A stretch of 63,677 nt of DNA, filler included, from Kipferlia bialata (Eukaryota), in the NCBI GenBank assembly GCA_003568945.1. It is 6 parts of 6 records of this genome, joined end to end, with 100 filler letters (N's around TTAATTAATTAA, not from the genome) between each part and the next. Parts side by side here need not be neighbours in the genome. Positions count along the whole stretch, not along the records: positions 36,847 to 49,023 come from BDIP01001124.1; 5 more parts are not named here. The stretch is one strand, 5' to 3'. The notes under the pieces were generated by a model. That model ran no database searches and was not told the origin of the DNA. It was given only the letters and a program-made list of their open reading frames with translations. Of the stretch, positions 24,616 to 55,335 are shown one piece after another (positions within the stretch are counted from its first letter, which is position 1; the number at the start of each line of letters is the position of its first letter). Position numbers and translations under genes: made by a program.

Positions 24616-24653
24616 CGATACGTACACAATGGGAGAGAGTGGCAAATACTCAC

Positions 24654-27600: not shown

Positions 27601-29337
27601 ACGCGTGAAGGCACAGGCTGGCAGTGCCTCGACTGCGTCTCTGATTTCATTCTGGACCACTCCGTATGGGGCAGCCAGAGAGGCCAGGGCCAGGGTGGCC
27701 AGCTGTGCCACGGGGGCAGTGCTAGTGTGGCTGGACTGGAGGGAGGTCAGGAGGGGGGACAGACACGCCCCGTACCTAGGCATGAGGGTACCCTGGGGGC
27801 CCTGTGGTAAGAAAGACAGGGTAGTGTAGTATATGGCATTGATACACTGTATTCAGGTATACATATATGCCCGTGCCTTCATTGTGTAGAACAGGGTGAA
27901 TGCCACTGTGTCTGCCCTGATTCCCAGGGTGTCAGCCGAGGGGTCAGTGCTGGATGACCCCTCTGCCTTCAGCATGGTGTCCAGGAAGAGAGACTCCTTC
28001 TTACGGGCACGCCTACAGTGAGATACAACGATATCCAAAGCATCACTTGATCAGAACACACCCCTACCTGAGCACGTATGCAAATGCCTCGCACTGCAGG
28101 GCATGCACCGAGTGTCTCTGCATGTTGGTGAGGGTGCCCCTCTCCTCCCCCTCCTCTCTCTCTCCCTTGAGGTTCCTGACAAACCGTGGGTATGCATCAA
28201 TCACCACAGTCATGAAGGAATTGACAAATGACACCAGCGTGGCATCGTCTCTAGTGATCTCAGGGGACAGGGCCTGGGGGGTGAGAACAGAGGTGGCAGA
28301 ATGTACACTAACACACACCTCTATCCACTGAAGACCCTATACCACTCAAACTATGAACTCTCACACACCCACTCACCTTGAACAGAAATGCCTCTGCTGT
28401 GATGATGTACTCTATGATGTCTGCTCCTATGGAGGTGCCTCCCTCACGCTCAATGCACTGGGGTGAGAGATAGAGGGGCTGAGACAGAGAGAGACAGTAC
28501 TTAATGATACTAAAGCATGACAGACGTCTACATTATGATCTGTATACACTGAGGAAAGGATAGATTAAGTACATACCCTAATGAATGAGCCCAGGATAAG
28601 GTCCAGCTGGGGCATCAAGAGCACTCCCAGGTCCTCTACCAAAGGGGGGAAGAGAGAAGCAGCAGCAGCTCTGCAGGTGAGTTGGGTAACTACATATGTG
28701 AAAATCTGGGAGTGTAACACCTGCCTAGAATGACACCGTACATACTATCAACACAAGATACACCCCACTACCTGGTCTCTGGATCCTCATCATTATTGAC
28801 ACAGTCCAGCAGGGCATTCAAGATGTGCTCCTGGTGCACCATGACCTGTGGGTCAGAGATATGAATAGGGCATATACCAGCACAATACACCAGTAAATAG
28901 AGCATTCCCCTCCCACATACACATCCCTCATATACCCCAGCATACATATACTCTGCATCTACGACAATAGAGTCAATAACGTGCAATTGAATGCCCCTAA
29001 GGCATAAGACATATCAGTACCATATCTCACTGATAAGTACTGTGGGCAACAATCAGTCATATAGTGACACTTATCATCCAATACATAACATATATATACA
29101 ATTATGCACTCACAAACCCCTCACCTGCGCCAGAAGCAGTGACCGACCAGCTGTCAGGCGTCTAAGCTTGCGGAATCCGGCCGTGAGGGTCTTGTTGCCC
29201 TGCTCTACCAATGCAGTGTTATAGAGGGAACCACGCTCGTCAGGAGGAAGCTCACTCTCTGCACGCCTCGCAAGGCCCATATCTATGCTAGCTACCCTCT
29301 CTAGGAACGAGATAAACTGGGTTAGAACTTGAGGCAT
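24654..29337 (-). CDS. UTP20: U3 snoRNA-associated protein 20 (SSU processome HEAT-repeat protein), 5' part, truncated at contig end
   Basis: Spliced N-terminus QFISFLERVASID..SLYNTALVEQGNKTLTAGF..LLLAQVMVHQEHILNAL..LVEDLGVLLMPQL..IIEYIITAEAFLFK..CEAFAYVLRR aligns motif by motif with the UTP20 N-terminus (FLTFAERL..YFFEGL..NLTEHF..QLVYHQNEI..LARDL..LLEWAFTSLSYLYK..AESFTFLMRK). Confidence 0.8.
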
Positions 29338-29595
29338 CTTTACTCTGCAGTGTATTCGCCTCTACATGCGCTAAAAACCCACCTTGAAGCCAGAGGATGC
29401 GTCATCCTTCCACCCGTCGAAGGAACGGGCTCCATGTTTGGCCTTACGACCTCTGCCCATCAAAGCACGGAAGAGCAGATGCGACTTGCGGCACCCTTCG
29501 GTCAGAGTCGAAGTTTTTAACCTTGCAAGTCACTGCTTTGTGCAGTTCTCTCTACCCATTTCACCAAGGCCAGTAACACCACATTATCCTGTGCG

Positions 29596-31644
29596 ATGTT
29601 CGGTGCTGTTGGTCGGTCAGAGAAGACCAACACTCCCGTGATTCACCTGTGTCTCGGGCTTAACAGTTTCAGAAACATTGCCATTTCCCAGGTAGAGTGC
29701 AAGCCACTTTCATTTTGCCACAGCACCACCTATGACACTATAGGTGCTCATGTTCGTCTTGATATAGCATTACATGCAATGTAGGGGCTGCAGTGTATTG
29801 TTGCAGTGAGTGGTGCCACCCTACTATATTTGGGTGGCGTCTCATACGGTATACTCTTGTGCATCGGTTCTCTGTGTTTGCGACAGATACGTATTTTCCA
29901 GATATCATGGCACTATATAGAGTGCATGTATTCCTTCCATTGAATGTGTGTACCTCCCACTCCCTCACCGCAGGCCGGGTACTACTATGTGTCTGCCCGA
30001 CTTGTGGCAGAGCATGGTGTCAGCACCATCACCCCCCTGGGTGTGGGTGCATCTCAACAGGGAGAGTACGCACAGGGCAGAGACCCAACCAGGTTCCATG
30101 TCAAGGGTGGGTATCTACTTCCATACAGAATGGTCATATTCTGTCAAGAATGCACCTTAGCCAATACAGATTGTAGGCACATACAAGTATCCACACTCAC
30201 CCCAGGGTTGCCTAGCCGAGTATCCCCCATTGCCAGTGCATATGAGTCCACTCCGTTTGTAGTGCGGTGGGTGGCGTTGTATACTTTCTATCTCATCATG
30301 CACTGTTACATACACTGTCACACTCATAGATGTACCTCCTGATGAACAGGTATGCCGCCCAGCTGGTACCTATCTGCGACATGTTCAATGTCAGGGTCAC
30401 AACAGACCCTCAGGACGCAAACCCATCCTGTCTGCTAGGTGGGATATGCTACACTGAATATGGCCTATCCATATTCCACTCTTCCTGCCCTTCTTATGTA
30501 TCTGACAGTCAGTGCTGGAGCTCCACTCGTACATCCCGCCCAGGGGTGACTTTTCGGAGGTACCTACCTATTGCAGAAAGTATATGAACCCCAGCATATT
30601 TCTTCCACACTGTCGATGATCTCAACACCGATTCTACAAGGTCTAGTGTTAATCTGTCATCCCTCTCTCTTTCTCTCTCTCTCTCTCTGTTCTTTGCAAC
30701 CCTCATCCCCCAGCCTCCCCCCGACCGCTCTGTCTTCAGCAGTGTGTGCTCCTCTGTGCATCGGCTGGAGCAGATGCTTGTACCCAATGCATCCAGCTTT
30801 GTCGAGACCTTCGATGACCTGCACATGACAGACCTCAGAATGACACTGCTCACTGCACCCATGCAGTTCAAGAAGGTACCAGTGTATATATACATACATA
30901 TATATATACATACATATATATATACATACATATATATATNATATATACATACATATATATATACATACATATATATATACATACATATATATATATATAC
31001 CCATGCAGTTCAAGAAGGTACTATAGTGCATGGATACATACATATATATATATATGCATACATATATATATACATTCATATACATATATACCCATGCAGT
31101 TCAAGAAGGTATGATAATGGCAGTGTGTGTATGTATGAGTATTGGGATACACCCTCCTCTACCCCCCAGGTTGGTGGGCGTGTGGCCAGGTCTGGTCCCT
31201 CAGGGGAGGACATCTCCAGACTGCTGACTCGGGTCAGGTCGTCTAGGGGACTGTTTGAGGACTTCCAGGCAGCGCAGGTATGTGATATGTCAATCACAGT
31301 ATAGTTGGTCCATATGTGTAAATGACGTGTCCTCTAACGACTGTCGCCTGACCGCAGAGCGGTTTAACGAAGCCCTCGCCCCTGGGTGCTGCCTCTCCAG
31401 GCGCCAGGGGCCCTGCCTCCCCCCCTCCCCCGGTGGCTGGGTCTGTGTTTGGACTGATGGCCCAGCCCATGGCACTGCAGGGCAGGACACACGACGATAA
31501 GGTGGGGGGGATGTATGCTTATATATATATACCATCACTGTCAGGGATACTGATACACAGGTCAAGAACCACGCCATGGAGAGGTCCCCAGAGCTGTTCT
31601 CCAGCCGGGTACTGACCCAGTGCAGTGCATCCCCAGTCCTCAGG

Positions 31645-31679
<35 letters not shown>

Positions 31680-34600
31680 ATATACCCCCCCCCCCTCACT
31701 CCAGGGTGACCTACATCTACCTGGCCACTGTGAATAGGTGGGCCAACAGGGCACTCAAGGCACATGGCAAGGCAGGCGCATACCAGATAGAGACACACAG
31801 GTACATAGTGGAGTGATAGGCAGTAATGGTCATACCCTGATACTCTCTCTCCCCCCCTACTGACACAGGCCCAGCATTGCCGAGGCCTCTGCCCTCCCCA
31901 CCCCCTCCCTGCCAGGTGTGATATCCCAGCAGTGGCAGGCACTGGTAAATGCAGCACAGACACACCCCAGGTAGGGGTGGATAGAACACTACACACACCT
32001 TAGTTCTCAGTGTAGATCCACAATATCGTACTCCTCCCCTCACCCTCCAGGGCCCTCTGTTCCATCCTGCTCCAGTCCAGACAGCACTCCATGGACGGAT
32101 ACACAGAGAGGTACACAGTGTGTGGAGATAGAGGTATATGTCCAGACTTCTGATGCCTCACCCCCCAGACTGCTGCACATCATGCCTGTGGCAGTGCCCA
32201 CCAAGGACTCTCCCACGCCGATGGTATGGGGGGAGATGACTGTATACTAGTGTAATTACTCTATTCTCTCTCTCACACACACACCCACACTCACGCCAGT
32301 CCCTGGATGTATTGTGTGACTGGTTCCAGAGTGTAGATGGAGGGGTCCAGTGGAGCGTGGACACTCGGTACGCATGGAGTGTGGTGGATACTGATATATA
32401 TATATATATGACTGTACTCTGTACTAGCACTATCTTGTGTACCCCCACCCCCACCTCAGTGAGGCCCTGAGCCAGACTGTCAGGGACACCAGGATGGACC
32501 TGGCCAGAGCATTCTCACACCCGCCAGGTATAGGATATATACATCGTCCTTGTGTTCATGTATACTTCCGTACCCACTCACCCCAGGTGCCGCTAGGGAT
32601 GTCAACCAGGATGTGTGGACCCAGCGTCAATTGGCCTCTGCGTGGCACAGTGTGTCTGCCATTAGGGCAGATGCACTGTACCCTGAGCCATTGACGTTCA
32701 GGTGGGTTTGAAGTGCCTCTTCATTCACCTCCCATGCCCTGGTATCTCACCCCAGGACTGCCGACCCCAACAAGAGTACCCTGGCCAGGGTGCTGCAGAT
32801 GACACCCACCGATGTGTACAACACAGTCAGACCATCGGCACTGGGGTGCACAATGCAGGACGGGGAGGTGGGGAGTGATATGTGTCATATTGTATTGAGA
32901 ATTAAGTATATGTGGCCCATGTGTCATAGTCTTCCCTCCACACCCACTCCCCCCCCCCCCTCACCCCCCAGGACATAGTCCCTGCCCCTCCCTCCCCTGG
33001 CAGGGCAGATGCCATGTGTGTGACTAGCATGTGCAGGCCCAGCTCCGTACCCCAGGCACCCACTCATACTGAGGGTGTCACGCCCATACCCACAGACGGG
33101 GGAGGAGCAGAGGCAGGGGTAGAGGCAGAGGCAGAGGCAGAGGCAGAGGCTGGTGAGCTGACTCTGGCCGAGCTTGGCTCTCTGGCTGTCACTGACCTGT
33201 CCTCTCTCTCTGGCCATGGCCTTCCCCCCAACCCCCCCAAGGCACCCTCCCAGGGCACAAGGATATCCAGTCCCCTGGCTAGGGTGGCCGCACAGCATAA
33301 CCAGGCACCCCCTCCATCCAATGCCCACAAGGCACCTAGTCAGGGAGGGGTGGGGAGGGTGGCAGCGGCCATGTCGGCTGCGAGGACTCTCACGGCATCC
33401 AGGTATGTGTCATCTCCTCGTATTCGTCCCTGAATGTGTAACAACCCCCCCCCCCCCCTTGACCCCAGGTCTGTTCTGTTCAGTGCTGCCCCCGAACCAC
33501 CAGTGCAGGGCACCAAGGTCAGTGGGATATGCACCCCACTCCAAAGCATCCATCCCCCATCTCCTCTCATCAACAGGTGTGGGTGTTTGTGCACGGCTTT
33601 CAGGGCCAGAGCGGTGACATGCTGTTGGTGCAGGTGAGACAGGGAGATAAGTGTCTGGGAGTTGTATGGGAGTTGTATGTCGTTGGGGTCTAGGGATCGC
33701 CTCTCACCCCAGGGTCTTCTGCATGCCAAGCACTGTGTCTCCCCCACTGTCCAGCAGCACCTGTACATAGTGTCCACAGCCAACGAGGGCAAGACAGGGG
33801 ACTCCGTCATCAAGCAGGTGCGGTGCATATAGTGTACATATGCCTACCTCTACCTCCGAAGAAGAAACATCTTTTATACACACTCTGTGATAAGTGAGTA
33901 CTATTGTAGTACTATCATACCCTCACCCCAGGGCGAGCGCCTCATCCACGAGATCAAGGCACGGGTGGCCAAGATCAAGGGGCCAGTGGCAGAGATCAAC
34001 TTCATAGGTTTCAGTCTCGGGAACCTAGGTGGGTGTGTGTGCCACTCCCTTGTCTTATTAGCGTATATATGAACCAGTGTCGTATATGTACTAGTATATC
34101 CCCCCCCCCCTCTCACCCAGTTGTGCGTTCCTGTTTGATGCATGCTGAGATGCGGCCGTACCTCCCCCTCTGCGGCACGTACCTGTCCTTCAACGGACCC
34201 CACCTGGGAGTATTGACATCTGGGTTCAAGGGGGGAGTCGTGTCACTCTTCACCAGATTCACACAGCAGAAGGTATCAGAGTGTGTGGTTGCATGATAAC
34301 TCTGCATGTGACTAACCCCCTAATGTCTGCTGCTTACCCCCCAGGCCCTCAAGGAGATCACGCTGAAGGGCAATGGGGACGTGTCCACCACCCTCCGCCT
34401 CCTGGCAGCCCAGAGCCACACCCTCAGTAACTTCAGACACATTGTGCTTGTCGGGAGTCAGGTGAGGGTTGACATGTATACACTCATGAATACATCATTG
34501 TACTGTGTGTGTCTCACCTCACAGGGCGATGGCATTGTGCCCATCCGCAGTGCCCTGTGCATACCCGAGACAGATGCCCAGAGGGGGGTGGCAGCCCAGT

Positions 34601-34922
34601 TCCTCAGCGGCATCAAGGACGTCAGGTTGGATGATGTATAGTGTATGTGGTTATCGTTTTCGTCAATAGTCCCTCACCCCAGGGTCACTGGTGTCCATCT
34701 GTACTACGAGAGAGAGGAACTGACCACCAATGAGAACAAGGTGCGGGAGGTGTCTTTGTAGTCAGTATATGTTCTCACTGAGACATACAATATATACACA
34801 CACACACACACACACACCCTCTGACCGCCCAGGTAGATGTTGCCATTGGCAAGGCCGAGCACGTGTTTGTGCTCAATGACATGTCCACTGTGGAGCTGTG
34901 TCTAGGGGTCATGCAGAGCTAG
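29596..34922 (+). CDS. FAM135: FAM135-like protein with C-terminal DUF676 alpha/beta-hydrolase (putative lipase), multi-exon
   Basis: N-terminus [24 protein letters not shown] and STPFVVRY..VPICDMF. C-terminus [83 protein letters not shown] at 34920-34922. Central exon boundaries not all verified. Confidence 0.85.
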
Positions 34923-35229
34923 ACACTGGCTGGATACATGTCCGCTGTTGAGTGTATGTTTCTACGTGTGTGTGGTGGTGTGTGTTTCTATGCAGTGGAT
35001 GTGTGGAGAGAGAATATATTCCATATGTATTTGTATGATCGTTTACGTGTGTTCCTCATCCACTCATAATGATATCTACAGAGACTATTCATCGCTGACA
35101 GAACATCTATTCTCGGCATATTGACCTCGTTACAGAGTCTGGGCGACTCACAGTCAATGTCACTAGAGTGACCGTGTAATAGTCAGTGGTCACAACCATG
35201 ACTATCTTCCTACCCGAGACAGATAGTCT

Positions 35230-36682
35230 CTACAGTGTAGTGAATGATGCACTCTTCCCCTTCTGTCTGGCAGCAGGCACCACCGCCACCCCCATGTCCC
35301 TGGAGGGGTGTCTGGGGTTGAACTCGGGGCAGTCTCTGCCGATGTGCCCCACCCTGTGGCAGTTGTGGCATATCCTATCCTCAGGTAACCCGTCCCCCCT
35401 CAGCTGCCTCTCCCTCCTAGGCTCAGGGCACCCCTTGGCAGTGTGACCGGGCATCCCACAGTTGTAGCAGGTCGGCTCCCCCTCGTAGCGAGGCTTCCTC
35501 TTCCTAACCCTCACCTCAGATGTGTCCCTGTTGGGGTGTACAGGGTTGTACTCGGGGCAGTCCCTCCCAATGTGGCCGGGCTCCCCACAGTTGTAGCACA
35601 CCCTAGACCCGGTGTTGGAGTGCTTGCCCACGTTGGGGAGGGGGCAGTCCCTACCAATGTGGCCAACCTCCTGGGGTCAGAGAGACAGAGAGAGAGGAGG
35701 AGAAAGATACTGATATCATGTGACACTAACTAAATAACATACCCCACAGTTGTAGCATATGCGGTCGTCAGTGTCAGAGCCACTGTCGGAGAGGGCCAGG
35801 CGCTCCTTCTTCTTAGCCTTACTCTTCCTGTCCTTTCTGGGCTCGGTGCACTCGCGGGCGTTGTGACCGGTCTTGCCACACCTGCACAGTGAGGGAGGGG
35901 GGGATATGGGGTAAACATAACATACACAGTAGGTGACAAGGGGCACAAGATATAGGACACAAACAAAAGAGAGTGTCAGTCACACCCACCTGAAACAGGC
36001 AGGCTCAGAGCTCACGCTCTGCTCTGCCCTCTGTACCTGGCCAATCACACGGTCTAGGGCAGAGAGGGAGGGGCCTGATCCCTGCACAGTGAGGCATAGA
36101 TGAGAGGCATAGATGAGACTGTGGTAGAGGGTGTGTGTCTCTAGGTCGTCGGTACCTTTCCCAAGGGGGTCCTGACCTCTGCACTATCGGTCTCGGTCTG
36201 CACCCTGTTCCTAGTAGAGGTGGGCCTGGGGTGGCTAGAGACAGCCTTGGCCTTGGTCTGTGTGCCAGGTCCATGGGACACAAGGACAGGGCTGAGGGAG
36301 GACCACTGGAGGTCAGAGAGGGACAGGGATGGAGACTATATGCACATCAGGGTATCTATAGTAGGGTCGAAATACCAAGAGAGAGACACACTAATATGTA
36401 TATACACTCACCTTGTCTACAACGGGTGGCTGGACACTCTTGGGCTTCTGCGCGGGCTGAACACTCTTAGGCTCAGCCTTCTTGGTAGGCTTCGGCCTAG
36501 GCTTGGCCTTAGTCGTGGGGGCCTCAGCTACCTTGGCTACCTTGGTAGGCACTGTCGGCACCACAGGCTGTGTCTGAACAGGGGTAGGGACATACTGGGT
36601 ATGTACTGCACCCTGGGGGCCATATGCATGATGACTCTGCACTGGTACAGGAACCATAGGGGGTGCAGCAGTGGCCACAAGC
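35230..36682 (-). CDS. CCHC zinc-knuckle nucleic-acid-binding protein (5 knuckles, CNBP/Gis2-like), 5' end missing
   Basis: CFR|CGKTGHNAREC, CYNCG|EVGHIGRDC, CYNCGEPGHIGRDC, CYNCGMPGHTAKGC, CHNCHRVGHIGRDC, after a Pro/Lys-rich region. Introns split two of the knuckles. Confidence 0.9.
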
Positions 36683-36746
36683 CTATCGAGTCAGATGCAT
36701 GTGGTATGTGGGGGGGGGGGGGGGGGGAAACACTTGGAAAAGGTCC

Positions 36747-36959: not shown

Positions 36960-36981
36960 ATGTATATATGTGTGTACTCAC

Positions 36982-38487
36982 TCTGCAGCCAGGTCGTGCT
37001 GAATGCGCACCAGGAACTTGTTGTCAAGACCTGGGAATTAAGGGTGTAGAGATGAAAAACGCTATGTTACAGGGAATAGAGGTACTATTTAGTAAATAGT
37101 ATTTACAGGGTGAAGATACACAACTAAAGGGTGCAGAGATGAACACTAGGAGCTCTTCATATATACATATATATATATATACTTCTGCCTATATATGTAA
37201 TAGTGACTATATATGACAATACCTGGGTGCTCCACATCGTGACTGGCAGCTGCAAAGTATATATATATAAATATATACATCTTGATAGACTTATATATAT
37301 AACTACTAACTATATACATATATATATGTGTGTATATATACCTGGGTGCTCCACGTCGTGACTGGCAGCTGCCAGGATGAGGGCCAGGAGCTCAAGGTCA
37401 CCAAACACATGCCTATGGTTGGCAATATTATATACATGCATAGAGTATATATATACACTATGGATATATACTATGGATGAGGGCCAAGAGCTCAAGGTCG
37501 CCAAAGGCATGCCTATGGCTAAGTGATTGTATAAAGAGATAACAGTGTTGAAATAGAGGACATGCGTTTCGCTGGTAGACCCTAAAGTATACATACTTGT
37601 TGCTATATAATACATATACATCTCACTGATACCTGTTCTTGGCTAGCATTGTCCTGGCCATGCAGACACACCTGGAGAATAAGGGTGCAGAGGGGGAGAG
37701 AATGAGAATGAGATAGAGATAGAGAGAGAGAGAGAGAGCACTCACATGTGGCAGACGTCTGTGGCGTGGGTCGAGTTGTGGTATATACATATACGATATA
37801 TGCACCTGTAAGTATATGTATAAATATGTACATATACATCTTACTCACATGTGGCAGACGTCTGTGGCGTGGGTCGAGTTGTGGTATGTGTTGCAGCTGC
37901 TGTAGGCGGCCTGGGGTGAGAGATACATAGCATATATATANNNNNNNNNNNNNNNNNNNNNNNNNNNNNNNNNNNNNNNNNNNNNNNNNNNNNNNNNNNN
38001 NNNNNNNNNNNNNNNNNNNNNNNNNNNNNNNNNNNNNNNNNNNNNNNNNNNNNNNNNNNNNNNNNNNNNNNNNNNNNNNNNNNNNNNNNNNNNNNNNNNN
38101 NNNNNNNNNNNNNNNNNNNNNTATATATACAGTATCATGTGTTGCAGCTGCTGTAGGCGGCCTGGGGTGGGAAAGAATAGAATATAGTAATACACTATAA
38201 ATATCCATACAATACAATGATTGATATAGATAGACATACCAGCATAGCGGTACACTAGGAACCACATCTGGGACTATTATGAAACACACACCTACATATA
38301 TGGAGGATACATATATATATATAGATATACAGTACCCTACCTGCATTGTGGACACCACATAGATATATAGATATATATATATATATATATACTTTATTAT
38401 ACTATAATTAATACACACACTATATATATGGAGGATACATATACAAATATATATACAGTGCCCTACCTGCATTGTGGACATTTACAG

Positions 38488-38519
<32 letters not shown>

Positions 38520-41500
38520 TATACATACCTGCATTGTGGACACCAGGTACCACATCTGGGACCTGCTGATGTGGAGCCTGTGGATTAAGGGTGCAGATAC
38601 ATGTATATCTATATATATATGTATATATATAGAGAGAGAGAGAACGAAGAGACCTGCTGATGTGGAGCCTGGGGGGTAAGGATAGAGAGGGAGAGATATT
38701 ATTAGTCAGTAACATAGTTATAGCTTTAATACATCGGTGATAACACTTACCGCTCATACAGCTTCATCTCGTGCATGGCACTGTCCACCAGGGTGGGCAG
38801 GGCAAGGAAGGAGGCAGCTCTGATATAAGATGGTATATGCAGTATATATACATATATATATTTGAAGAGAGAGAGAGAGAGAGAGAGGTAGACACCAGGG
38901 TGGGCAGGGCAAGGAAGGAGGCAGCCCTGGGGTGAGGTACACATACTATTTACTACTCAGGGTGTGAGAGAGAGAAAGATATATATATGTATAACGGTCA
39001 AGACGAGGAGGTGTCTCTACACAGACTAGGAATACTAGTGATATACAATAGTTCATATACTAACCTAGGATACCCCGCTATCTCCCCCGTGTTCTCCTTG
39101 GCATCAGAGTCTCTCTCTCTCTCTGCCAGTACTATATAGTATATAACAATTTATATATATAGTTTATATATACAATCAAGTACCTAGGATACCCCGCTAT
39201 CTCCCCCGTGTTCTCCTTGGCATCTGGTGGGAAGGTCTTGAATACATCAAAGTCGGCATTCCATACAAGCTGATATTAAGGGTGTAGAGGGAGAGAGAGA
39301 GAGTAGTTCTTGAAGACAACAAGTCAGCATTCCACACAAGCTGGGTATTAGGGGTGTAGAGGGAGAGAGAGCGAGAGAGAGAGAGTGAGAGAGAATAGTT
39401 CTTGAAGACATCAAACTCAGCATTCCAGACAAGGTGGTATTATGGTACTATAATATCGTACTATAACACTATAAGAATAAATATACAATGTATAGAGTAC
39501 ATATCCGTCGCTCAAAGGGTCTTTTTGGCATTCGGTACACAGTGACATATACTACATATATCCATACGTAGTATACACTATGACACTACATGCTATATAA
39601 TGATAACAATATATACAACATATACATCCATACCTCTACCCCTATGGGTCTCTTTGGCATTGGGTACACAGTGGTATATATATTATACATTGTATAGTAT
39701 GTTTGTATATATATTTACTATACACAAAATAGATAATGTGTACTATACCTCGATGGGTCTCTTTGGCATTGGGTACACAGTAGTATATAATGTATCTTCT
39801 TCTCATATATATATACATACATCAATAGAGGTATACATATATATATATATATATACCCATACCTCAATAGGTCTCTTTGGCATTTGGTACACAGTGACGG
39901 TGACATGTACTATATACATGTACAATATATATTGTACGGTATACATATAAACCTATTTATATATTGAATAGTCTCCATACCTCAATAGGTCTCTTTGGCA
40001 TTGGGTACACAGTGATGGGAGGGGAAGGGGGGAACACCTCATTGCTAGGGGTCAGAGAACATCTACTATCTACAAACTGACACTGCGGTATAATAGACTG
40101 TCATCTCTCACTCACTCACCCTATTGCCGCCGCCCTCTCCCTGGCCTCATCCTCTGTCTCCACGCATAACACATAACTCATACTAAATACTGCATATAAT
40201 ATAAGTATATATACTATTGATTAAGACTAATGCTACATACCCAATGGCAGCCGCCCTCTCTCTAGCCTCGTCCTCTGTCTCCACTCATAACACAAACCAC
40301 ATACTAAATACTGCATATAATATATGTATATATACTATTGATTAAGACTAATACTCCATACCCTATTGCAGCTGCTCTCTCCCGTGCCTCGTCTTCTGTC
40401 TCCACTCGGCTCAGGGTGCAGTGGGCCTCCTTACGGGGGCCCTAATAGTAAGTAATTGTCGTTATTACACTACCCTATGTATATAGATATACTGTGTGTG
40501 CTACTAGATTGAGGGTGCAGTGGGCCTCCTTGCGGGGGCCCTAAGAGTCAACTATAGGTGTTGTGCTTATACAATCAATTATATAATAGAATTATAATAT
40601 GTATGATATTATAGAATTACAATATGTATATTATTGAGCTCAGGGTGCAGTGGGCATCCTTACGGGGTCCCTAACGGTCAAACAGAGTAAGAAGATCCCA
40701 AAATGTAGGGTTATAGTGTAGCACAACTATATATATATGTACCTGCCATCCGGATAATGGGTTAGCATATTCACATACATGTACATATAATTCAAATGTA
40801 TGATATAATTAATGTCTAATGAATATTTATATATATGAATATATATATATAATAAATATATATGTATATGTGTACCTGTCATCCCGAGAATATGTCGTAC
40901 TAAGTATAGTTGTGGTTATCATATATATATATATGTACAAAAATGTAATTAGTATAATAATTAATATAATAGTAAATTCATATTTACATATATATACATA
41001 TAATTACCTGCCATCCCGAGAATATGTCGAGCATCAGGTCCTTGTCAATGCCTGAAATAAGGTCCAGCAGTCAACTAAAGGGTCTAGTGAATATAGTATG
41101 GTAGCCTGAAATAAGGGTGTAGTCGCCAACAAAAGGGTCTAGTAAATGCAAGAAGAGTGAAGAGTGAAGAGTGAAAGCATATACCTGAGCGTGCTATGGC
41201 CTTGTCTCTCTCCCTCTGCCTCTCTCTCTCCCTCTCGTGGCTGGGGGTAAGCAAACACCAATTTATCCATTTCATGGCATGTATACTAGGTCACTTATGA
41301 GGAATAGATATGCCAATCATATATAGATACCCCAATCAAGGCATATAGAGGTGTATACTCACCGCATTCTGGGCACGATGTCAGGTGCTGTGTTTGTGTC
41401 ATTGGCATCTCTCGAGTCACGCACACCCAGGAGAAGGTCACGGCCTGATGTAAGAACTATATGTATATATAGAATACAACATAAACCATAGTATAGGGGT

Positions 41501-42741
41501 GTGAATTGGCATCCCAGCAGGAGGGCACTGCCTGATGTGAATATATAATCAATGTATTTACCATAGTGATACAAGGTCTATACAAATATTGAAGTGGTTG
41601 GATACCCAGTTGTGCATACGAGTTGACCATGAAGTGCGCCACCTCATATATAATACATACACATATGTATAACATATACATACTTATATATACTTATATT
41701 TATTAGACACAGTACCTGTTGGCTCTATACTGACTACTGGTTGGATATCCAGCTGTGCATATGAGTTGACCATGAAGTGTGCCACCTCAAGTGCCTCTCG
41801 GTCAGGCTTAGAGAGACCAATGATCCTGCTTATTAGAGAATAGAGTTGGTACGTCATCATCATCATTCATAGTGGAGTATATAAGTAGAGCCTCTCGGTC
41901 AGGCTTAGAGAGGCAAATGATCCTGATAGTAACATACTATTAGTAAGGGTGTAGCAGAGATGAATAAAGGGTGTAGCAGGTATGTGTCATGGCTTGGAGA
42001 GGCCAATGTTCCTGAGGGTATAGCGTGGGTATATATATCAAAGGTTTGGACATGGTGGTAAATATACATGTACAATATGGAGTACCTGTATCTCTCACTG
42101 TTGACCATGTTATCCAGGGTATCCATCTATACGTATACTATATACTATAGCATATATATATATATATATTACATACCATGTATATATATAGTACCTGTAT
42201 CTCTCACTGTTGACCATGTTGTCTAGGGTGTCCATATACACATACTATATACTATAGCATATATATATAAATGTATACCATGTATATATACTATATATGT
42301 ACCTGTATCTCTCACTGTTGACCATGTTGTCCAGGGTATCTAGGATAGATACAACGGGGAGGCCAGTCTTCCTACGCAGAACCTGGGGTTAGAGATATAG
42401 TTAGGAATATATGAACATATATACTCGGTATCTAGGATGGACACAACGGGGAGGCCAGTCTTGCGACGGAGTACCTTAGTATAAGAGGACTTATATATAT
42501 ATACACACACACACATATATATATACACACAGAGAGAGAGAGGGAGATGCGCCAACGGGCAGACCGGTCTAGGTCTTGCGACGCAGGACCTGGAGTAAGG
42601 TATATATACAGGTATATATAAATCCATATATGCTAGTAACATGTTCATCTTCATATAAAATTCACTCACTCACCTGATTCACCCCGTCCATGACCACATC
42701 CTGCAGGGGGGTATATATATATACATACATACACTATACTG

Positions 42742-42772
<31 letters not shown>

Positions 42773-44240
42773 CTATACCTGATTCACCCCGTCCATGACC
42801 ACATCCTGCAGGGGGTTATATACAGTAAATACATATACTAATATATATATATATATATTATGCATATTATGTATATAATACATGAGTATACCTGGTTCAC
42901 CCCGTCCATCACTACATCCTGCAGGGGGTGGACAAACCTCCTCATCTGGGAACCCCTGGTATAAGGGCAATACTCAGAATGAATGGGGGTACATCGATAC
43001 AAGTGTAGTATTAAACTGTATAGAATATCATAGTTCTTTTCAAATAATTATGGGATTAGACTCATGCAAAGAGTGACGACAGCAAAAATGAGAGTCAGGG
43101 TTGTACCTCCAGTGCCACAGCTTGCTGAACATGTCAAAGGACCTGGACATGCATAAATATATTATATAACTATATACAATAATAATGTATATATATATGT
43201 ATGATGTAGTCTAATAGTTAAGGGTATAGACTCCTACCTCCAGTGCCACAGTTTGCTGAACATGTCAAAGGACCTGGACATGTGGTCTATGCCATACAGG
43301 AGGTCAACGATGACATAGAACCTGAGGGATAAGAGGGTGTAGAGAGAGAGAGCATGTGGTCAATGCCATAGAGGAGGTCGACGATGACATAGAACCTGAG
43401 AGATAAAAGGGTGTAGAGAGAGAGAGAGAGAGATGTGGTCTATGTCATACAGGAGGTCAACGATGACATAGAACCTAGAGATTAGCATACAAGAACATTC
43501 ATATTATTATATATTATTAGAGAGAGAGAGAGAGAGAGAGAGAAACCTGCTCTATACCTGCTTGAGTAGAACTGCCTCAGGGTATGCTTCTCGAGCTGGG
43601 CAAGGACCTCCTATAGATAAGAGACACAATACAATTATGCTTGCACAGTGTTAACTATCTGACAACATTACTAAACATGTACTTATGACTATATACGTAA
43701 GATGCAATTATTGTAGGTATCATACATAAATATGCATGTTGTGGAAGTGTACACACCTCTTCGACTGCCTCAAACACAGCCATACTATCTCTAACACTAG
43801 TGTAAAAGAACAAACATACAGCCACCCACACATATACTAGTTTGTATACACTGATATACACATATCCTACCTCCTCGACTGCCTCAAACACAGTCACGGC
43901 CTCAGAGGTCATCCTGGCCTGGTATGAGATAGTGTATAGAGTGATACATATCTAATACACTATACTATCCAAATACATCTACACAACAGCCTCAATAATT
44001 ATTATGTAAATATATATATATACTATATAGTCACGGCCTCAGAGGTCATCCTGACCTGGGGGTTAGATTAAAGAGTATAATTGAATAGATGTATATGCTA
44101 CATTTACATACTACAGACATATACACCCACCTTTAAGTCGGGTATCATCCTAGGCACCTTGGTCACACAATCATATCCAAGTCTATCTATACTATATGGA
44201 TACATACATATTTACTATGCTAGTATTCTTCTTTATCAAT

Positions 44241-44278
<38 letters not shown>

Positions 44279-45340
44279 GTCATAATACCTTCAAGTCCGG
44301 TATCATCCTGGGCACTTTGGCCACACAATCATATCCAAGTATATCTATCTACAACTATATATATATATAGATATATACATATTTTATATGGATACATACA
44401 CATACTGTGCAAAAATACCTTCAGGTCTGGTATCATCCTGGGCACCTTGGTCACACCCCCAATGTGGATACGGTTCTGGAGTGTTAGCTAGAAGAACACG
44501 AGGTCATGGATCCACTTGTATACTCTCAACCATGTACACATAACAATGTGTTTGGAAAGACAGAAGTAGCTCTATATGTATGTACGTCAAACGTGTATAC
44601 CTTCAACCCCGCATTACAGTATGCTACCCCAGATATATACATACACAGATTCTTGATGCATACAATTATCAAGATTCAATACTACATACTTAATACATAC
44701 TATATTATAACTAAATACCTTCAACCCTGCATTTTACACATATATATATATATATATATATACATATATATACATATATACCTTCAACCCCGCATTGCAG
44801 TATGCTGCCCCCAGGTAGGTGAGACCACACCGGCACTTGGCAAGGGCAGCCTGAATATAAGGGTGTAGAGGGAGAGAGAGACAGGGAGAGAGAGAGAATC
44901 ACTAGACACCTGGCAAGGGCAGCCTGGCAATAAGGGTGTAGAGGGAGAGAGAGAGAATTACTAGACACTTGGCAAGGGCAGCCTGGGATAAAGGGTGTAG
45001 AGGGAGAGAGAGAGAGAGATGACTCTCACCTTTGGGAAATACAACTGCCCCAAAGACATGTAATAGAGAGATAGTATACTATAGTATACACACCCTCGAG
45101 ACCTCTATGACTGGGGCATCATCGTGGGAGTGTAGGTACCTGGAATAAGGGTGTAGTATCTATTAAGGGTGTAGGTACCTGGAATGAGGGTGTGGACGAA
45201 GGGAACAAGGATGTAGTCTGTGTACAAGTACAATAATACGTGCAAATACAATATGAATATGTGAGGGTACTCTCTATGCAATACAACACGTACTGTGCAA
45301 ATATGGTGCATGCCAGTCAGTCTCTCTCTATATATATGAC

Positions 45341-45380
<40 letters not shown>

Positions 45381-48300
45381 AATATATAGGAATACGTACT
45401 GTGCAAATATGGTGCATGCCAGTCTGTTGGGGTCCACCTCAGTGTCCTTGGTGTCCACTTGCTGGGATGAGGAATAAAGGCACAATGGGTAGCACCTATA
45501 TATGTATTGGTACATTGTACAATTCTAGTATAACTTATGCATAACAACCTCAGTATCCTTGGTGTCCACTTGCTGGGATAAGGCTATATTAGGCAGGGAA
45601 CTACTCCAATGTCATTACAAGTGACTATTATAGTATGACTTATGTACTACTTACATATATACATAGTCGTACCCGTCTGTACTCCAGTGTTGCATTCAGG
45701 AACTCCATGCTCAGCCTGGCCTTGGGGTTGCCCTACAGTCAATGAAGTAAGCAGTGATACTAGACCTAGTATTGTAATAATGGACATATTCAAGAGAATT
45801 TTTACTACATAACATTGTCGTGATTGTTCACAGGCCCTTTTACCTGTCTTCTGACGACTAGATTGACTGTTAAACTACATGTCTTCTGACGAACAGAGCA
45901 AAGAGGTCATAATGAATACTATACAAGGATATATACCTATTATAGACGCATATATATATAAATATATATCCAATATACCTGTCTTCTGACGAACAAAGCA
46001 AAGAGGTCATAATGAATAGTACATAACGATTCTACATATATACATATATTTAGTATAATTATATATAATACACTATTGTATATATATAAATATTTTGTAA
46101 AATTATATATAATACACTAATGTAGTACCTGTCTTCTGACGAACAGGGCAAAGAGGTCGTAATGAATTTCTACATTACGATTCTACATAATACACTCGTA
46201 TATATATATTTAGTAAAAATATATATAATACACTAATGTATATATATATATATTTAGTAAAATTATATATAATACACTAATGGGTTACCTGTCTTCTGAC
46301 AAACAGGGCAAAGAGGTCGTGTCCATGGACAATCTCAAAGAGACCATTGAGGGTGCCTGTGGGAAAACAACAGTAAACAAATGAAATACATATGAATATA
46401 TGAATGTCTATCAGTGTACTACGCAATGAAAGATATCTCAAACAGGCCATTGAGGGTGCCTAGTGATTAAGGGTGTAGAGTGTGTGAGAGAGAGAACAAT
46501 ACAACCTCAAACAGACCATTGAGGGTGCCTGTGAGATAAGGGTGTAGAGGGAGAGAGAGAGGGGGACAGAAACTACACCACCATATAGATGAAAGTGAAT
46601 ATATCGAATATATAATGCTAACCAATACACCACGCAACAAAAGAGTACCTGGCACATTGGTTGTCAGTACCAGCGGGTGCACAAACGCGAGTACAATGAT
46701 GATGCCACTGTTGCCAAGTACAGCAGACCAGATGACACCGCAATATGCCTTAGAGTCAGTATGTATAGAAACACACATATGTATATACATATATATACAT
46801 ATGTTAATGAGTGTATATATATGTACAAGTGATTATGCCACTGTTGCCAAGTACAGCAGACCATATCACTCCACAATAGGCCTAGACGTAAGTAGATATC
46901 TTATATATAAACTAGATATATATCCAAATAGAGTATTCTAATCCAACACTCACCTGAGGCGTGACATGCATTGACACATGTAATTATATGGATACTAATA
47001 TATACATATACTTACATATGTATATATGTACTGACCTTACATGAATACTTATATACACATATACTTATATATGTATATATATACTGACCTGGGGTGTGAC
47101 ATGCTGCAGAAAGGCGTGGTACACATAGTACACAATGGCAGTGCGGGCAAGGGCAACAAGGGCAAAGACAAGCCAGTATAGGCTGAACCTGGAATAAGGG
47201 TGTAGAAGGAGAGAGAGAGAGAGAGAGTAAGGGCAACAAGGGCAAAGACAAGCCAATACAGACTGAACCTGGAATGAGGGTGTAGAAGGAGAGAGAGAGA
47301 GAGAGAGAGCAGGGGCAACAAGGGCAAAGACAAGCCAGTAAAGGCTGAACCTGGAATAAGGGGGTAGAAAGAGGAAGAGAGAGACTGTCTCACGCACTGG
47401 AGAGTTAGGGGTGTAGGGGAGGAGAAAAGGGTGTAGGGAGGGAGAGAAATGGGGGTCAATGTATATATATACCTGCTTCGAGAGACTCCTCATCATCACA
47501 GTCTCTCTCTCTCCCTCTCATCTATCTCCTCTGTGTATAGATATGTGTAAACATACACACACATATATATATACCTTCTTCTAAAGACTCCTCCTCCTCT
47601 GTGTCACTGGAGAACTCCATATCACCATAGCAGTGCTTAGTATAAGGGGTCTCCTGAGGTTAAGCATATGTGTGACAGTGTATAGAGAGAGAGAGAGAGA
47701 AGGATGGGAACTCCATGCCTGCATAGCAGTGCTTAGTATAGGGGATCTCCTGAGGTTGGATTGTACACTATACTCCCTAGTATACGTCTATCTAATTAAT
47801 AAATACTAGTAATACAATCATTAATACTATTTACTCCATACCTGTATAGTGATGGGGTCGTTGATGATACTATATATGTGTGGGAATCTATATACATGTA
47901 TGATATACATGCTATTATGCTCCTTACCTGAATAGTGATGGGGTCGTTGATGGCTGTGTTGGTCATAGAGCCATACTGGGATGAGTTAGGGATAAGAACA
48001 CTAATCTTTGTAATAATAGTACTCTAATTTCTATACAATGAGAAAGAGACACATATCATTGTATAAACATAGGAACACCAATCATAGTATGAACGTATAC
48101 AGAGAGAGAGAGACATAAAGAGAAGATGATACTACTTCCAGATGTCCTTCACTCACCTCATCCTCCTGAGTATATGTTGTTTGCATATAGGTATATATAT
48201 ACACATATGCACATATACCTCATCCTCCGAGTATATGTTGTCACAATATATGTAAATACATATATATACACATATATATATATACCTCATCCTCCGAGTA

Positions 48301-48989
48301 TATGTTGTCACTCCATGGCTCAGAGGTGTCTGTGCCCTCAAACCCATGGATACCAGACTGGACCTGGAATAAGGGTGTAGAAGGGGAATATAAGGGTGTA
48401 GAAAGGGAGGTACGGGTGAAGGTGGGGAACATGAAGCAAGAAGAAACTCACAATTTGTGTGAGTACTTAGTATACATATGATGTATTCACATTAAGTACA
48501 TACCAGAAGTCCACAGAGGTATGCATTACACTACATTGTATTCATATACATTACATAATAAATTAACTATAGAGAGGTATACCTCTGCCCCCCTTGCGAA
48601 GCAGAGGAAAAAGGGTGTAGATAGATGTATATATATATATATACTAATATATATATACATAAACATGGGTATACATACTCATATATATACACTCATATAT
48701 ACATATTCATGTATACATACCTCTGCCCCCCTTGCGAAGACATCGATATACTCCACAAGTAGTCAATATGTATACATATATAGATATATACACCTATATG
48801 TATATATACTCATATATATATACCTCTGCCCCCCTTGCGAAGTACATTTATACATATAAATGCAATAGAGAGTAAAGCAACTACGTATGACACTATTGAT
48901 ATACTCCAGTGGCGCATAAAAGTATATAGTATTACCTCTGCCCCCCTTGCGAAGCGTCCTGTCAACAGGAAGTCAGGGGAGTACACGAC
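36982..48989 (-). CDS. Class I cyclic-nucleotide phosphodiesterase with upstream transmembrane segments and an RGS-like domain; about 30 exons, both ends missing
   Basis: PDE motifs WNADFDVF, YHNSTHATDVCH and LELLALILAAASHDVEHPG|LDNKFLV. RGS-like exons at ~46356-43557. Hydrophobic exons FSLYWLVFALVALARTAIVYYVY and AYCGVIWSAVLGNSGIIIVLAFVHP. Phases fit across the RGS exons and the intervening exons read open; one phase conflict near 47400. Confidence 0.85.
40120..40405 (-). repeat. 121-bp-period exon-end echo array (VETEDEARERAAAIG|GT x3)
   Basis: Copies at 40362-40405 (true exon end), 40241-40284 and 40120-40163. Confidence 0.95.
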
Positions 48990-49725: not shown

Positions 49726-51527
49726 ACACCACAGCCCCAGGGTTCCACTCTGCACAGATGCACAGCGTCCTCTACAGAGCTCTGAGTCGGAAGGACCCCA
49801 ACCCTGTTACCATAGAGGTATTATACATTATTAGTGCTTATTCATTGTATATATGTATTATATTTCTTATAGTATATAGTATATAGTATATATAGTATAT
49901 ATATATATATAACCCTGTTACCATAGAGGTATTATACAATATAGTGTGATATACACTATACATGTATATGTACACACCATCGTGTACAGTGGTCTAAGTC
50001 GGAGTGACACCGAGTCAGATATATATATCCCTTTCTTCTTATTTGTAATTATGTAATATGTAATAGATTTCTTTCTTCTTATTTGTAATTATTCTATCCA
50101 TTTTCTAATTGTTTCATTTTTAATAAGAGTCCAATGTATATGATACCCATTGATGTCTGAGTTTACTCTCACTACCCCTTTTCATGCGGGGTGACACCTA
50201 GATGACCTTAGTCTACTGCTGTTCTCTTCATGAATACCTCGGAGTAGAATTACTTACTTACCATAAGTTACAGTTTACATTACATTCAATTACCCAAAGT
50301 TATCGGGATTTTTACCGTTTTTACCATAATTTACCTCAGTCTGTAGCCGTTCTCTTCGTCATTGCAGAGAACGACATAGAGGGAGGTACGGTGTACTACT
50401 ATTACTATTATATAGTACATGTATATAGTATTATACCTCACCCCCAGATCTCTCTAATCGACTTGCCATGTTGCCTCTCTTTGTGACTGCCCTACAGACA
50501 AAGCTGAGGGAGGAGGACCCAATCAGAAAGTGTGGGATGACATATTCCATATATATATATATATATATAGTTATTGGTACAAAGTATATATGTGTTCTAC
50601 AGACAAAGCTGAGGGAGGAGGACCCAATCAGAATATATATATATATATATATATATACATAAGCATTATTGTTCATGGATAGTGTTTTCAAACTCAACGT
50701 ACTTGGATACATCACATACATCACCTATCGTTTGACTATCTAAGTATGTATATATATGTATATTTATAGATATACAATTTCATATATAGTGCATATATCT
50801 AAGTGCATATATAAATACTCACCCCCAGACTCATCCATCTCATTCTGTTGGCACTGGTCAACGCCATTTGTGGAGGTATGAATTTCTCTATCTCTCTCTC
50901 TCTCGTTATCCAATATTATCCTCATACTCTATCATGTTTAGCCCAATGCAAAACAGAATTATTAATTAATATCAATCTGTAAGTTAAGAATACTTTAAGC
51001 TAAGAAGTCTTGCCCGTCCACCAGTTGTATGGTTATATGCATGCAAGTATTGAACGGCTTCTGTGGAACGCTACAGTACTAAGAGACGTACAGTATGAAT
51101 CTATATATCATATCCACACTCTGATTCCAGCACACGCAGCTACATATATATATATAAATGTATACTAATTTACCTGAGAAATATACATACATGCACGTAT
51201 ATACCTGATATATATATAATAAATATATGTGAATATACTGACATACATATACACCTGTTCTTATACCAGCACATGCAGCGACTGCCCTTAGGCTTGGTGC
51301 TCACACACTAGGTATGTGTACTTGGTATATATATATATATAGATAGATAGATAGATATATGTGTCAATAAATAAGGATATATATATTTATATATCAACAA
51401 TCATGTGTACTATATCGGCCCTCACCTCCTCGTTTGACATATACATATGTATTACTCTATACATATATAGCATGAGTGGTAGTCTGTTCTCATACCCTAG
51501 CGATGGACGCCGTGGCCAGGTTCTCCT

Positions 51528-51561
<34 letters not shown>

Positions 51562-52283
51562 TATATATATTGATATATATATATCACCCCCAAGCCATGG
51601 ACGCCTTGGCCAGGTTCTCCTTTCTCTCTCTCTCTCTCTCACACATATATATATACATATACATATATCAATTGGTATATACTACTAATTCACCCCCAAG
51701 CCATGGACGCCGTGGCCAGGTTCTCCTCTACTATATATACAGTATATTCTTATATGTATATATTCCTCTTTAAGTGACATTACCGGTTCTCATATATTCA
51801 TATATGTTCATTCACATTGACACCAGCCATGGACGCCGTGGCCAGGTTCTCCTCTTCCTATGACATATGCAACGAGGCAGTAGCGGTGCTGTCGTCTATG
51901 GCCAACGGTACGGGTCTATTATAATCTCTATATCTACACTCGGAGTGTAAATCTCTACAGTTATACGGGTATGAAGAAATAGAGGTCCTATCCTCTATGG
52001 CAAACGGTACGTATTGGGAATATCATATCAATATATATACCACCTGCAGAGGTACATGTTCTGCATACATATAACTACCCATATATATATGTGTGTGTGT
52101 ATGTGTGTGTATACATTCATGGCATTAACTTACTAGTCATGATACACCCAGACCATGGTGCATCATCTATATATATATATATGTATATGTATATTATACA
52201 TGGTATTAACTTACTAGTCATGATACACCCAGACCTGCAGAGGGCCATGATACCGTATATATTTTTTCATGTACTATATATCA

Positions 52284-52315
<32 letters not shown>

Positions 52316-52946
52316 CATAGTACTAACTGTCTAGACATGGAGCCCGACCACCTGCAGAGGGCCATTATAATAGTAGTATATACACATATATATACAATAT
52401 ACATAAGACTAAGACATAAGACTAAGACATAAGACTAATGCACAGACATGGAGCCCGACCACCTCCAAAGAGCCATGGTGCAGGCTGGTGTTGTACAGAC
52501 ATGCCGCACAGCCATGCTGGCACACCCAACGTCAGCGGTGAGTGATACTCATATATATGTATGTGTATATATATATATCCCTCTATCTATATACGCTGAG
52601 TACTGAGTGCCGCAACGCAATGCTGGCACACCCAACGTCAGCGGTGAGAAGCACATTATCCTATTCACTCTGTATGACGTGTACTATTTATGACTATTAA
52701 CATGCATGTATTTGTATGTTTCTAATGTACGTCAGCGGTGAGAGGTTCTCGTGTCTAATATATACTATATGATATTCTGTATTTATACTCCATTTGTAAT
52801 TCTCTGACTCTCGCTCTCTCTCTCCATTCTTATCTATGAATACAGACTGACTTCAGGCCTAGTTGGGTAGTTTTTATATCATCCCTCTCTCTCTCTCCCC
52901 TTTCTTATCTCTCTAGGGTATATCTGGGCAGTCCCTTGACGTCATT

Positions 52947-52979
<33 letters not shown>

Positions 52980-53938
52980 TCAATCCCACTCTCTCCATTC
53001 TTACCTATCTATCCGTACCAGTAGATACTAACTTCAGGGGATAGCTGGGCAGTCCCTTGACGTCATCTCGCTGATGTGTCTGCACAAGGACAGAGACGGT
53101 ACGGAGTAAATCAATATATATGTATATATGTATTACTATATGGTATGATATACATATATACTGATGTGTCTGCACAAGGACAGAGACGGTACGGTATATA
53201 TCTATATAGTAACATAAATATACACATAAATATGTATACATATATACTAATGTGTCTACACAAGGACAGAGACGGTACGGTTTTTATGTGGTAGTGTATA
53301 TACACATATATTGCTATATGGTACAAGGACAGAGATGGTACGGAGCAGCATAAACTAATAATAGTATCTATTCATCCATACATTATATACCAGCTTATAT
53401 ATTAGTATATTAGTATAGATACGCTTGTTTTGCATGTTCTTACCACAAGAGCAGACCCTCGGCCCACTAATGTCCCAGCGTGTGTATGAGTGGGCCCTGG
53501 AGGCATTGTCAGCATTCTTACAGGTGCATAAGCTTACATATACATATATTACTACAATGCAATACTTATGTTACTAAATATATGTATATACATTGCAATG
53601 CGTATGTTTTGCATACTGTACGAGTGGGCCCTGGAGGCAATGTCAGCATTCTTGCAGGTGTGTTGTAGTGTATATATACATTAGCATATATACAAAAATA
53701 CATTCACTGTGTTACTATATAATATATATATGTGTGTGTGATATACATATATATGTGTGTATATGTTTGGGCACTGAACTCTACGATATCATAGATATAT
53801 GTGTATGTGTTGCTGTGTATATATATGTGTATATATATGCGTATCTGCCCACAATCAGGACCCCTTTGTTGTCGACAGAGCCATCAAGGTGCTGCAAGTA
53901 TGCATCAATGGTATGTGCAGTATGAATATCACATGGTC

Positions 53939-54012
<74 letters not shown>

Positions 54013-54697
54013 TATACATATCTCACCCCATACCCCCCCGGCATGTCCTATGCCACTAGGCCCCAGTCCCTGCAGACACTCTTTGCATCACTGCACATGC
54101 ACATAGACGATGAGGTATAGTATTATAATATCATTATTATCATACTTTTGTATGTCATATGGTATACATCACTCCACATGCACATAGACGATGAGGTGGG
54201 TGTATGTATAATTATAGTATCAATATTTATATATGTATTTCATATGAATTGCATCACTGCACATGCACATCGATGAGGTTGGTATAGTAATATAGTAAGT
54301 ACATGAGAAGTATATCAATATATATATTATATTTAGTGTATACATTTGCATCGCTGCACATAGATGATGAGGTGGGTGGGTGCGGATGATTACTCTGACA
54401 GTACTCATATCATGAACTGACCGAGTGTCACCTGATGCTGCTGATCATTCATATATACATTATATATACTGGTATATACTTATATACTTATGTATGTATA
54501 TACTTATGTGTTATATACTTATATACCAGGAACTGACCGAGTACCTCCTGATGCTGCTGATCAGTCTCTTTTATTCATGTTATAAATATATACATTGTAT
54601 ATGGTGTTATATATATATGTATATACACCAGTCATTAATACCAGGAACTGACCGAGTGCCACCTCATGCTGCTGAACACCATGTACCACTATGCAGG

Positions 54698-54730
<33 letters not shown>

Positions 54731-55298
54731 GTATATATATATTTGGTATCATGCATATATACTATGTATATGTAATAGGGTGAGATGTATACATTTATAA
54801 CATGTACAGCTATGCAGGTATCCATGCATATATATGTATTTGGTGTCTCTGAAGTCAATTGTTTGGCTATAAGACAACTTCTCGGTTTTCACTACACTCT
54901 CATATAGTTCTCGCCAACCCCCTTCATATGATATATATTGTAGTGTATAAATATATATATGTCTTACGCTCAGATGATTAGTAATTATGTATCTTACTCT
55001 AAGTATATATGTGTATATATATGGTTATATATATACATATATATATCTGTATATAAGCTAAGTCTAACCCCCAGATGATGACCAGTACATTGCGCTTATG
55101 GACATGGACCTGGTGGGCTGTATGGCTAGGGCTAGGTATATTACAGTATATGCTTATGTATGTTAATACACATATATATTTAATATATTATAGTGTATTT
55201 ATTATACATATATACATGTAGTGTTAAGTATATGGACCTTGTGGGCTGTATGGCTAGGGCTATGTGTCTATGAGTGAAATATTCATTATGTTTGTATA

Positions 55299-55335
<37 letters not shown>

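Follow-up and report, generated by a model that had tools for sequence, protein, structure and literature searches.

Intronic duplicates of exon edges in Kipferlia bialata carry a marked excess of synonymous differences

Genes of the window and the phosphodiesterase array

The window, meaning the whole stretch of DNA analysed (63,677 nt), is made up of several ~12.2 kb scaffolds of Kipferlia bialata with N-linkers at positions 12186, 24467, 36747, 49024 and 61292. K. bialata, a free-living fornicate, has an annotation of 124,912 introns, according to excerpts of PMC5874029. Exon queries matched the K. bialata proteins KIPB_004987 (100%), KIPB_004989 (100%) and KIPB_004993 (97% identity). The last of these is encoded by a partial gene on the minus strand (36981-48989) for a cyclic-nucleotide phosphodiesterase (PDE, PF00233), the first exon of which (48989-48936) was assigned by frame continuity. 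KIPB_004989 lies at 12288-24340 (plus strand), a hand-modelled gene of 20 exons at 49726-57891 (plus), the gene for an M60-like peptidase of 1642 aa at 1472-7052 (plus) and a multi-zinc-knuckle gene at 35233-35676 (minus).

Partial copies of exons within introns, here termed echoes, were sought by a codon-blind, ungapped comparison of exons with their flanking introns. This gave 116 segments, of which five had no splice-site anchor and were discarded; free ends were trimmed by 3 nt each. The census, from one window and one sample, was 111 echoes in 69 arrays, and 51 of the 100 introns of four genes were affected. The PDE gene contained 51 echoes in 25 of its 29 introns, KIPB_004989 contained 28 in 14 of 44 (including the VHP and SPIPSQ arrays) and the 20-exon gene 27 in 12 of 19 (including GLDDFC), while the same search found none across the eight introns of the M60 peptidase gene. 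Outside these genes, a donor echo with a single Q>E change (209-247, minus) accompanies an exon at 412-286 labelled importin-like in the earlier note, two identical donor echoes of exon 30714-30875 lie within 30999-31108 (plus), and exon 63387-63295 is flanked by an acceptor echo with three replacements and an identical donor echo (63198-63476, minus). Reading frames were taken from deposited proteins in two genes (79/111 echoes) and from open-frame continuity for the remainder (32/111); a de novo gene finder took echoes for exons, and deposited proteins were therefore preferred. Four deposited exons that overlap echoes were counted as intron. Introns of the echo-rich scaffolds (12286-24466 and 36847-58500) are longer and AT-rich, and the echo-poor scaffolds (1-12185 and 24567-36746) are GC-rich and have short introns.

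The focal array is located in the PDE gene, on the minus strand. The deposited model places the working exon at 40362-40441, and a contig of RNA type matches 40362-40443 with no other letters. The last 44 nt of this exon (40405-40362) recur twice in the 317-nt GT..AG intron that follows (40045-40361), ahead of the next PDE exon (39981-40044). The intron begins with a 77-nt spacer (40285-40361) that opens with the used GT donor, followed by donor echo 1 (40241-40284), which retains its GT, a second 77-nt spacer (40164-40240) and donor echo 2 (40120-40163), which runs into an unrelated GT flank. The description in the earlier note was borne out in full here: the three copies (40405-40362, 40284-40241 and 40163-40120, minus) all encode VETEDEARERAAAIG and are followed by GT, echoes 1 and 2 differ from the exon at 8 and 7 positions and from each other at 6, all 11 distinct variants are synonymous, and the two spacers differ at 7 of 77 sites. 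The chance of this all-synonymous outcome under neutrality is ~2e-7, before correcting for the choice of an extreme case, which the focal array is. Between the exon and echo 1, 8 of ~10 synonymous sites differ, compared with 7/77 spacer sites (p=4e-6), and the exon part has therefore changed independently of its flank. Of the three focal units, two are alike over their whole length, as in a minisatellite. Upstream of the focal exon are two acceptor echoes of its start (40540-40512 and 40670-40638, within 40512-40670), and the intron after the next exon holds four donor echoes (39900-39511) and then two acceptor echoes (39433-39321).

The reality of the focal array was assessed in read-derived contigs over 486 bases (39975-40460). 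One DNA-run contig covered the region with 0 differences at a depth of 376, the neighbouring contig having a depth of 369, and no diverged contig was present at a threshold of 85% likeness; the assembly may itself derive from this DNA run, and the contig counts as a re-assembly rather than a second sample. No exact repeat in the array is longer than 27 nt, which is below the 31-letter index words, so the junctions should stand in the reads. It is extremely unlikely, given the spanning contig and echo junctions that fall in mid-exon, that haplotypes were stitched in tandem during assembly, even though the assembly is from short reads, N gaps occur inside three arrays and 16/111 echoes share at least 31 nt exactly with the exon unit, for which reason copy number in these 16 may be off. 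The internal N gaps (22112-22194, 37941-38121 and 55599-55685) are all three situated inside echo arrays, and the true arrays may exceed the assembly.

Anatomy, flanks and splicing of the echoes

There were 64 donor-side and 47 acceptor-side echoes, indicating boundary-spanning tandem duplicates at both exon ends. The acceptor-side echoes, which include two of the examples in the earlier note, are of a mirror type: they consist of an acceptor and exon start, lie upstream of the exon and have no donor. Every copy thus has a single splice site, with donor copies downstream and acceptor copies upstream. None of the 116 segments lay on the wrong side, and the side on which an echo lies is by itself explicable by tandem geometry. 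GT was kept in 56/64 donor echoes and AG in 45/47 acceptor echoes. The median echo was 31 nt (maximum 51 nt), the median spacer 75 nt and the median period 108 nt; arrays reached five copies, with differing flanks. Donor echoes stood ahead of acceptor echoes in all 13 introns that hold both types, and median intron length was 319 nt with echoes against 99 nt. All echoes ended at the exon edge and ran on into GT or AG intron sequence, and none spanned an exon-exon junction. Copies derived from mRNA were rejected as candidates, the intron flank being present; the mRNA-templated conversion suggested in the earlier note likewise conflicts with echoes that end in genomic splice sites.

The flanks of the echoes were mostly unalignable. 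Only 11/105 N-free flanks exceeded the 99th percentile of random intron pairs, and the near-identical spacers of the focal array, to which the earlier note had appealed as a contrast, are atypical. Where the exon part was identical, the flank was at the level of random introns in 19/21 cases, and flank identity did not track divergence of the exon part (rho -0.07). This pattern fits exchange that ends where exon homology ends. The PDE scaffold (37049-48620, minus) holds 20 copies of a 3' intronic motif, CTACACCC(C/T)T, that is absent from the rest of the window; a shorter form is found at 8/29 true PDE acceptors compared with 1/71 in three other genes. Acceptor ends are more alike within than between genes (p=0.0005), which suggests copying of intron ends from one intron to another inside a gene.

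Splicing was followed in the RNA-type contig, from a run assigned as RNA by guess, which does skip a GT..AG intron. The contig joins 40362 to 40044 across the 317-nt focal intron as one joint with no other letters, and both of its echoes are removed. The loose ends of the contig match the exon that ends at 41008 (41051-41008) and the one that starts at 39269. In each of three successive introns the first donor is thus joined to the last acceptor, and the acceptor echoes upstream and all six echoes downstream are skipped as well. The innermost sites are accordingly used, directly at one joint and by way of loose ends at two, and normal splicing is undisturbed, as in the animal repeats termed mirages.

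Translation of the echoes today in minor isoforms, which the earlier note had entertained, is highly improbable. The innermost sites are those used, the distance to an echo is a multiple of three in 30/111 cases, use of the distal site would be in frame and stop-free in only 4/111, and some echoes contain stop codons. These observations outweigh the retention of most splice dinucleotides, the loss of rare variants from contigs, which renders minor isoforms invisible, and the two deposited exons that overlap echoes and are required for frame.

The deposited models contain four exons that overlap echoes. At 47396-47189 (minus) the model depends on an exon of 46 nt that stops at the AG|GT of an acceptor echo and uses it as a donor, which is possibly a new intron made by duplication or else a prediction error. 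At 17116-17150 (plus) a frame-required exon of 35 nt contains a 19-nt donor echo in another frame and may represent exonisation of an echo. The frame-neutral exons on acceptor echoes at 44982-44908 (minus) and 20395-20433 (plus) are probably prediction errors. Echoes thus appear to mislead gene prediction.

Synonymous excess and its possible origins

The dN/dS comparison of echo with exon proposed in the earlier note was performed within the window. For the 111 echoes pS was 0.243 (160.7/661 sites) and pN 0.030 (68.3/2255), a ratio of 0.125, and third codon positions held 165 of the 229 exon-echo differences. Counted as unique variants, 137 were synonymous and 68 were replacements (p=4e-18 against a model of a constrained exon and a neutral echo). 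The ratio was 0.058 in the PDE gene and 0.141 and 0.218 in two others; two small sets of two echoes each had no synonymous differences. After removal of all seven exons cited in the earlier note the ratio was 0.146 (96 echoes). The other arrays named in the earlier note (SPIPSQ, VHP, VPRMIPDLK, FYVIVDLLYGIDH, GLDDFC and the importin Q/E echo) were all recovered, but some carry replacements, namely T>A in one VPRMIPDLK copy and, in the outer copy of FYVIV, G>D plus M>I. Simulated echoes passed through the same filter gave ratios of 0.79-0.81 when neutral and 0.42-0.44 with constraint on the exon alone, and in a test of detection bias the ratio never fell below 0.33 in 200 replicates. Neutral decay of a tandem duplicate is therefore insufficient, as had been argued.

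The excess was also present between the copies themselves. Thirty multi-copy arrays were compared by their innermost and outermost echoes, and the echo-echo ratio was 0.17. Private synonymous and replacement variants numbered 16 and 1 in the exon, 18 and 11 in the inner echo, and 24 and 18 in the outer echo; an excess of synonymous variants is therefore present separately in every copy (p<=2e-4 for each). Replacements were more numerous in the outer than in the inner echoes (18 versus 11), but not significantly so (p=0.26). Because pure decay predicts ~3 replacements per silent change, each echo appears to combine a coding past of its own with some decay. The BLOSUM scores of the replacements were not clearly milder than random (p=0.08). 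Synonymous changes showed no drift towards AT (GC>AT 52, AT>GC 49), and GC at fourfold sites was 0.64 in echoes and 0.62 in exons, compared with 0.32-0.36 in the surrounding introns. In the 30 arrays pS was 0.30 between echoes and 0.26-0.29 between exon and echo, so that concerted evolution of the extra units was not seen, and variants were shared among echoes in a few arrays.

These data bear on whether the echoes are eroded duplicates of whole exons, once translated as mutually exclusive exons. Such an origin would account for the long synonymous divergence and for flanks that do not align, with no need of high polymorphism; however, no complete duplicate and no wrong-side remnant was present in 116 segments, echoes do not exceed 51 nt, 28 of the 111 are identical to the exon and AT drift is lacking, and this origin is decidedly improbable.

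A toy Wright-Fisher model was run with N=300, four runs per setting, whole-tract conversion and lethal replacements, and is crude. Five of 11 settings gave ratios of 0.09-0.21 with pS of 0.17-0.34, and all of these combined allelic diversity of 0.23-0.31 with exchange between haplotypes; the observed pattern was reproduced only at an allelic synonymous diversity of about 0.23-0.25 with such exchange. In the other six, where diversity was low or haplotypes did not exchange, the ratio was 0.40-0.73. Direct capture from a homolog worked, as did local copying with a later swap of the exon for that of another allele, and the two were indistinguishable. The model agrees with the argument that a clonal lineage should stay near or above 0.5, since neutral replacements keep entering on the echo side. 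The echoes might still be ordinary mirage minisatellites of one lineage, in which replacements are purged by frequent back-conversion into the working position. The anatomy is that of mirages in the accessible text of PMC3087553, and the exon-identical echoes and alignable flanks indicate that local duplication and homogenisation occur. This account is nonetheless quite unlikely, as the low-diversity and no-exchange settings do not reach the observed ratio and echo-echo pS is not below exon-echo pS.

The echoes are genuine partial duplicates of the edges of exons and are removed by splicing. They probably represent former working exon ends, displaced or overwritten, each from a different, strongly diverged allele; the reading agrees with that of the earlier note, in which echoes were archived pieces of functional alleles. 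Under this allelic reading, the acceptor and donor would be paired across the exon, in keeping with the lack of complete or wrong-side copies and the donor-first order in 13/13 introns, so that a half-exon is ignored and persists, and echoes would be tolerated because each lacks one splice site. The population would be very polymorphic, with synonymous diversity of ~0.2 or more, and allelic introns would be too unlike to pair, restricting recombination between haplotypes to exons. Events would mostly swap an exon end; an occasional overshoot into the intron of the donor allele, with end-joining, would leave the old end as an echo. The exon and existing echoes would later be overwritten from other alleles or from each other, with tracts that stop where homology stops, and replacements would accumulate only between overwrites. 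One-sided invasion is invoked for the birth of an echo.

Several published observations are relevant to these steps. Fornicates are without NHEJ and Rad51A but keep two Dmc1 paralogs and conserved meiotic genes (PMC8516963, in excerpt), and Dmc1 stabilises mismatched joints (PMC6719624, likewise). In a 14%-divergent cross of a hypervariable fungus, crossovers were concentrated in exons (abstract of PMC4209137). A synonymous diversity of 0.20 is given in the abstract of PMC4576712, the highest value found in the literature, and on the toy model the diversity needed for the allelic reading would equal or exceed it. Further points against this reading are the weaker ratio of 0.218 in one gene and that no second allele was seen: the DNA run gave no diverged contig on the focal exon, no second strain was found, and the metagenomes yielded no relative.

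A stronger proposal can be entertained only tentatively: a genome-wide, recombination-driven conveyor, in which Dmc1 would direct one-sided invasion of a hyper-diverged homolog, a new exon end would be put in place and the old one displaced into the intron. If so, successive earlier alleles would be kept at thousands of exon edges in one genome, introns would grow in the process, and a single isolate would reveal both outcrossing and the population diversity of a metamonad.

Instead of alleles in an outbreeding population, the templates may have been homeologs or close paralogs dating from a hybrid or polyploid phase that has since resolved. This would likewise yield a signature confined to synonymous sites and flanks that do not align, and the divergence of the focal exon from echo 1, at 8 of ~10 synonymous sites, is far over the mean. 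Against this, arrays of up to five copies with differing flanks would require repeated events and several lineages, no second copy covered the focal exon in the DNA run, and the exon query matched only the gene itself. Such an origin is unlikely.

Significance and relation to known systems

The pattern is real, dense and strongly non-neutral, with a known anatomy and an inferred allelic origin. Sex has never been directly observed in metamonads (PMC8516963, in the portion available), and the echoes, if they come from recombined alleles, would be a trace of it where none has been seen. They offer a test of outcrossing and extreme diversity from one genome, because the coding signature is hard to obtain unless diverged haplotypes exchange sequence. 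Exon-wise pairing of splice sites in a short-intron protist is also suggested, and the echoes provide a route to intron lengthening. The spliceosome of K. bialata is reduced, with 87 proteins (PMC6679479, in excerpt), and such repeats are unmentioned in the available parts of that paper and of the genome paper (PMC5874029). Relatives were sought in metagenomes: the PDE protein produced 161 pattern matches, none of them a relative, and a scan for the intron pattern yielded 88 loci, none with a BLAST match to the window. One metagenome contig (L084, 1-540) bears a look-alike array of five diverged, GC-richer copies of ~36 nt with TA-rich spacers.

The earlier note knew of no description of the arrangement as a genome-wide system; its anatomy is already known from the mirages of amphioxus, reported in Adh3, the globins BflGb6 and BflGb9, troponin C and PGBD5 (PMC3087553 and PMC3902484, in their accessible text). 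These too are tandem duplicates of exon-intron boundaries at either exon end, with AG and GT mostly kept and splicing normal, and the period in Kipferlia is akin to the 150-160 bp units of the globin mirages. Unlike amphioxus, the host is a metamonad protist with half of its modelled introns affected; intronic parts are mostly unalignable, whereas mirage units are described there as 81-100% identical, and the echoes show no concerted clustering. The strong synonymous excess, present also between dead copies, goes unmentioned for mirages in the accessible text of these two papers, and the open literature, supplements aside, contained no report of it there or of these repeats in Kipferlia. The same statistic is applicable to animal mirages, the origin of which is described as unclear in that part of PMC3087553.

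Other systems resemble the echoes in part. Mutually exclusive tandem exons were rejected as a match, a complete duplicate with both splice sites being found in 0/116 segments. Hypervariable Schizophyllum commune shares the regime of the model, with synonymous diversity of ~0.2 and recombination limited to exons, but the diversity of Kipferlia is only inferred and the abstracts concerned (PMC4209137, PMC4576712) describe no partial exon duplicates. Human minisatellites, as outlined in excerpts of PMC2599865, likewise have repeat arrays altered by transfer from allele to allele; their units are non-coding and homologous along the whole length, whereas in Kipferlia only the exon parts are homologous and protein selection acts on one of the units. 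The Rogers model of intron gain (cited in the accessible text of PMC3087553; PMC3265369, in excerpt) also involves short intragenic duplication that includes splice signals, but introns in Kipferlia lengthen rather than being newly made, with one possible exception at 47351/47350. The echoes are thus mirage-like, and what sets them apart is the protist host, their density, flanks that mostly do not align and a coding signature borne by dead copies.
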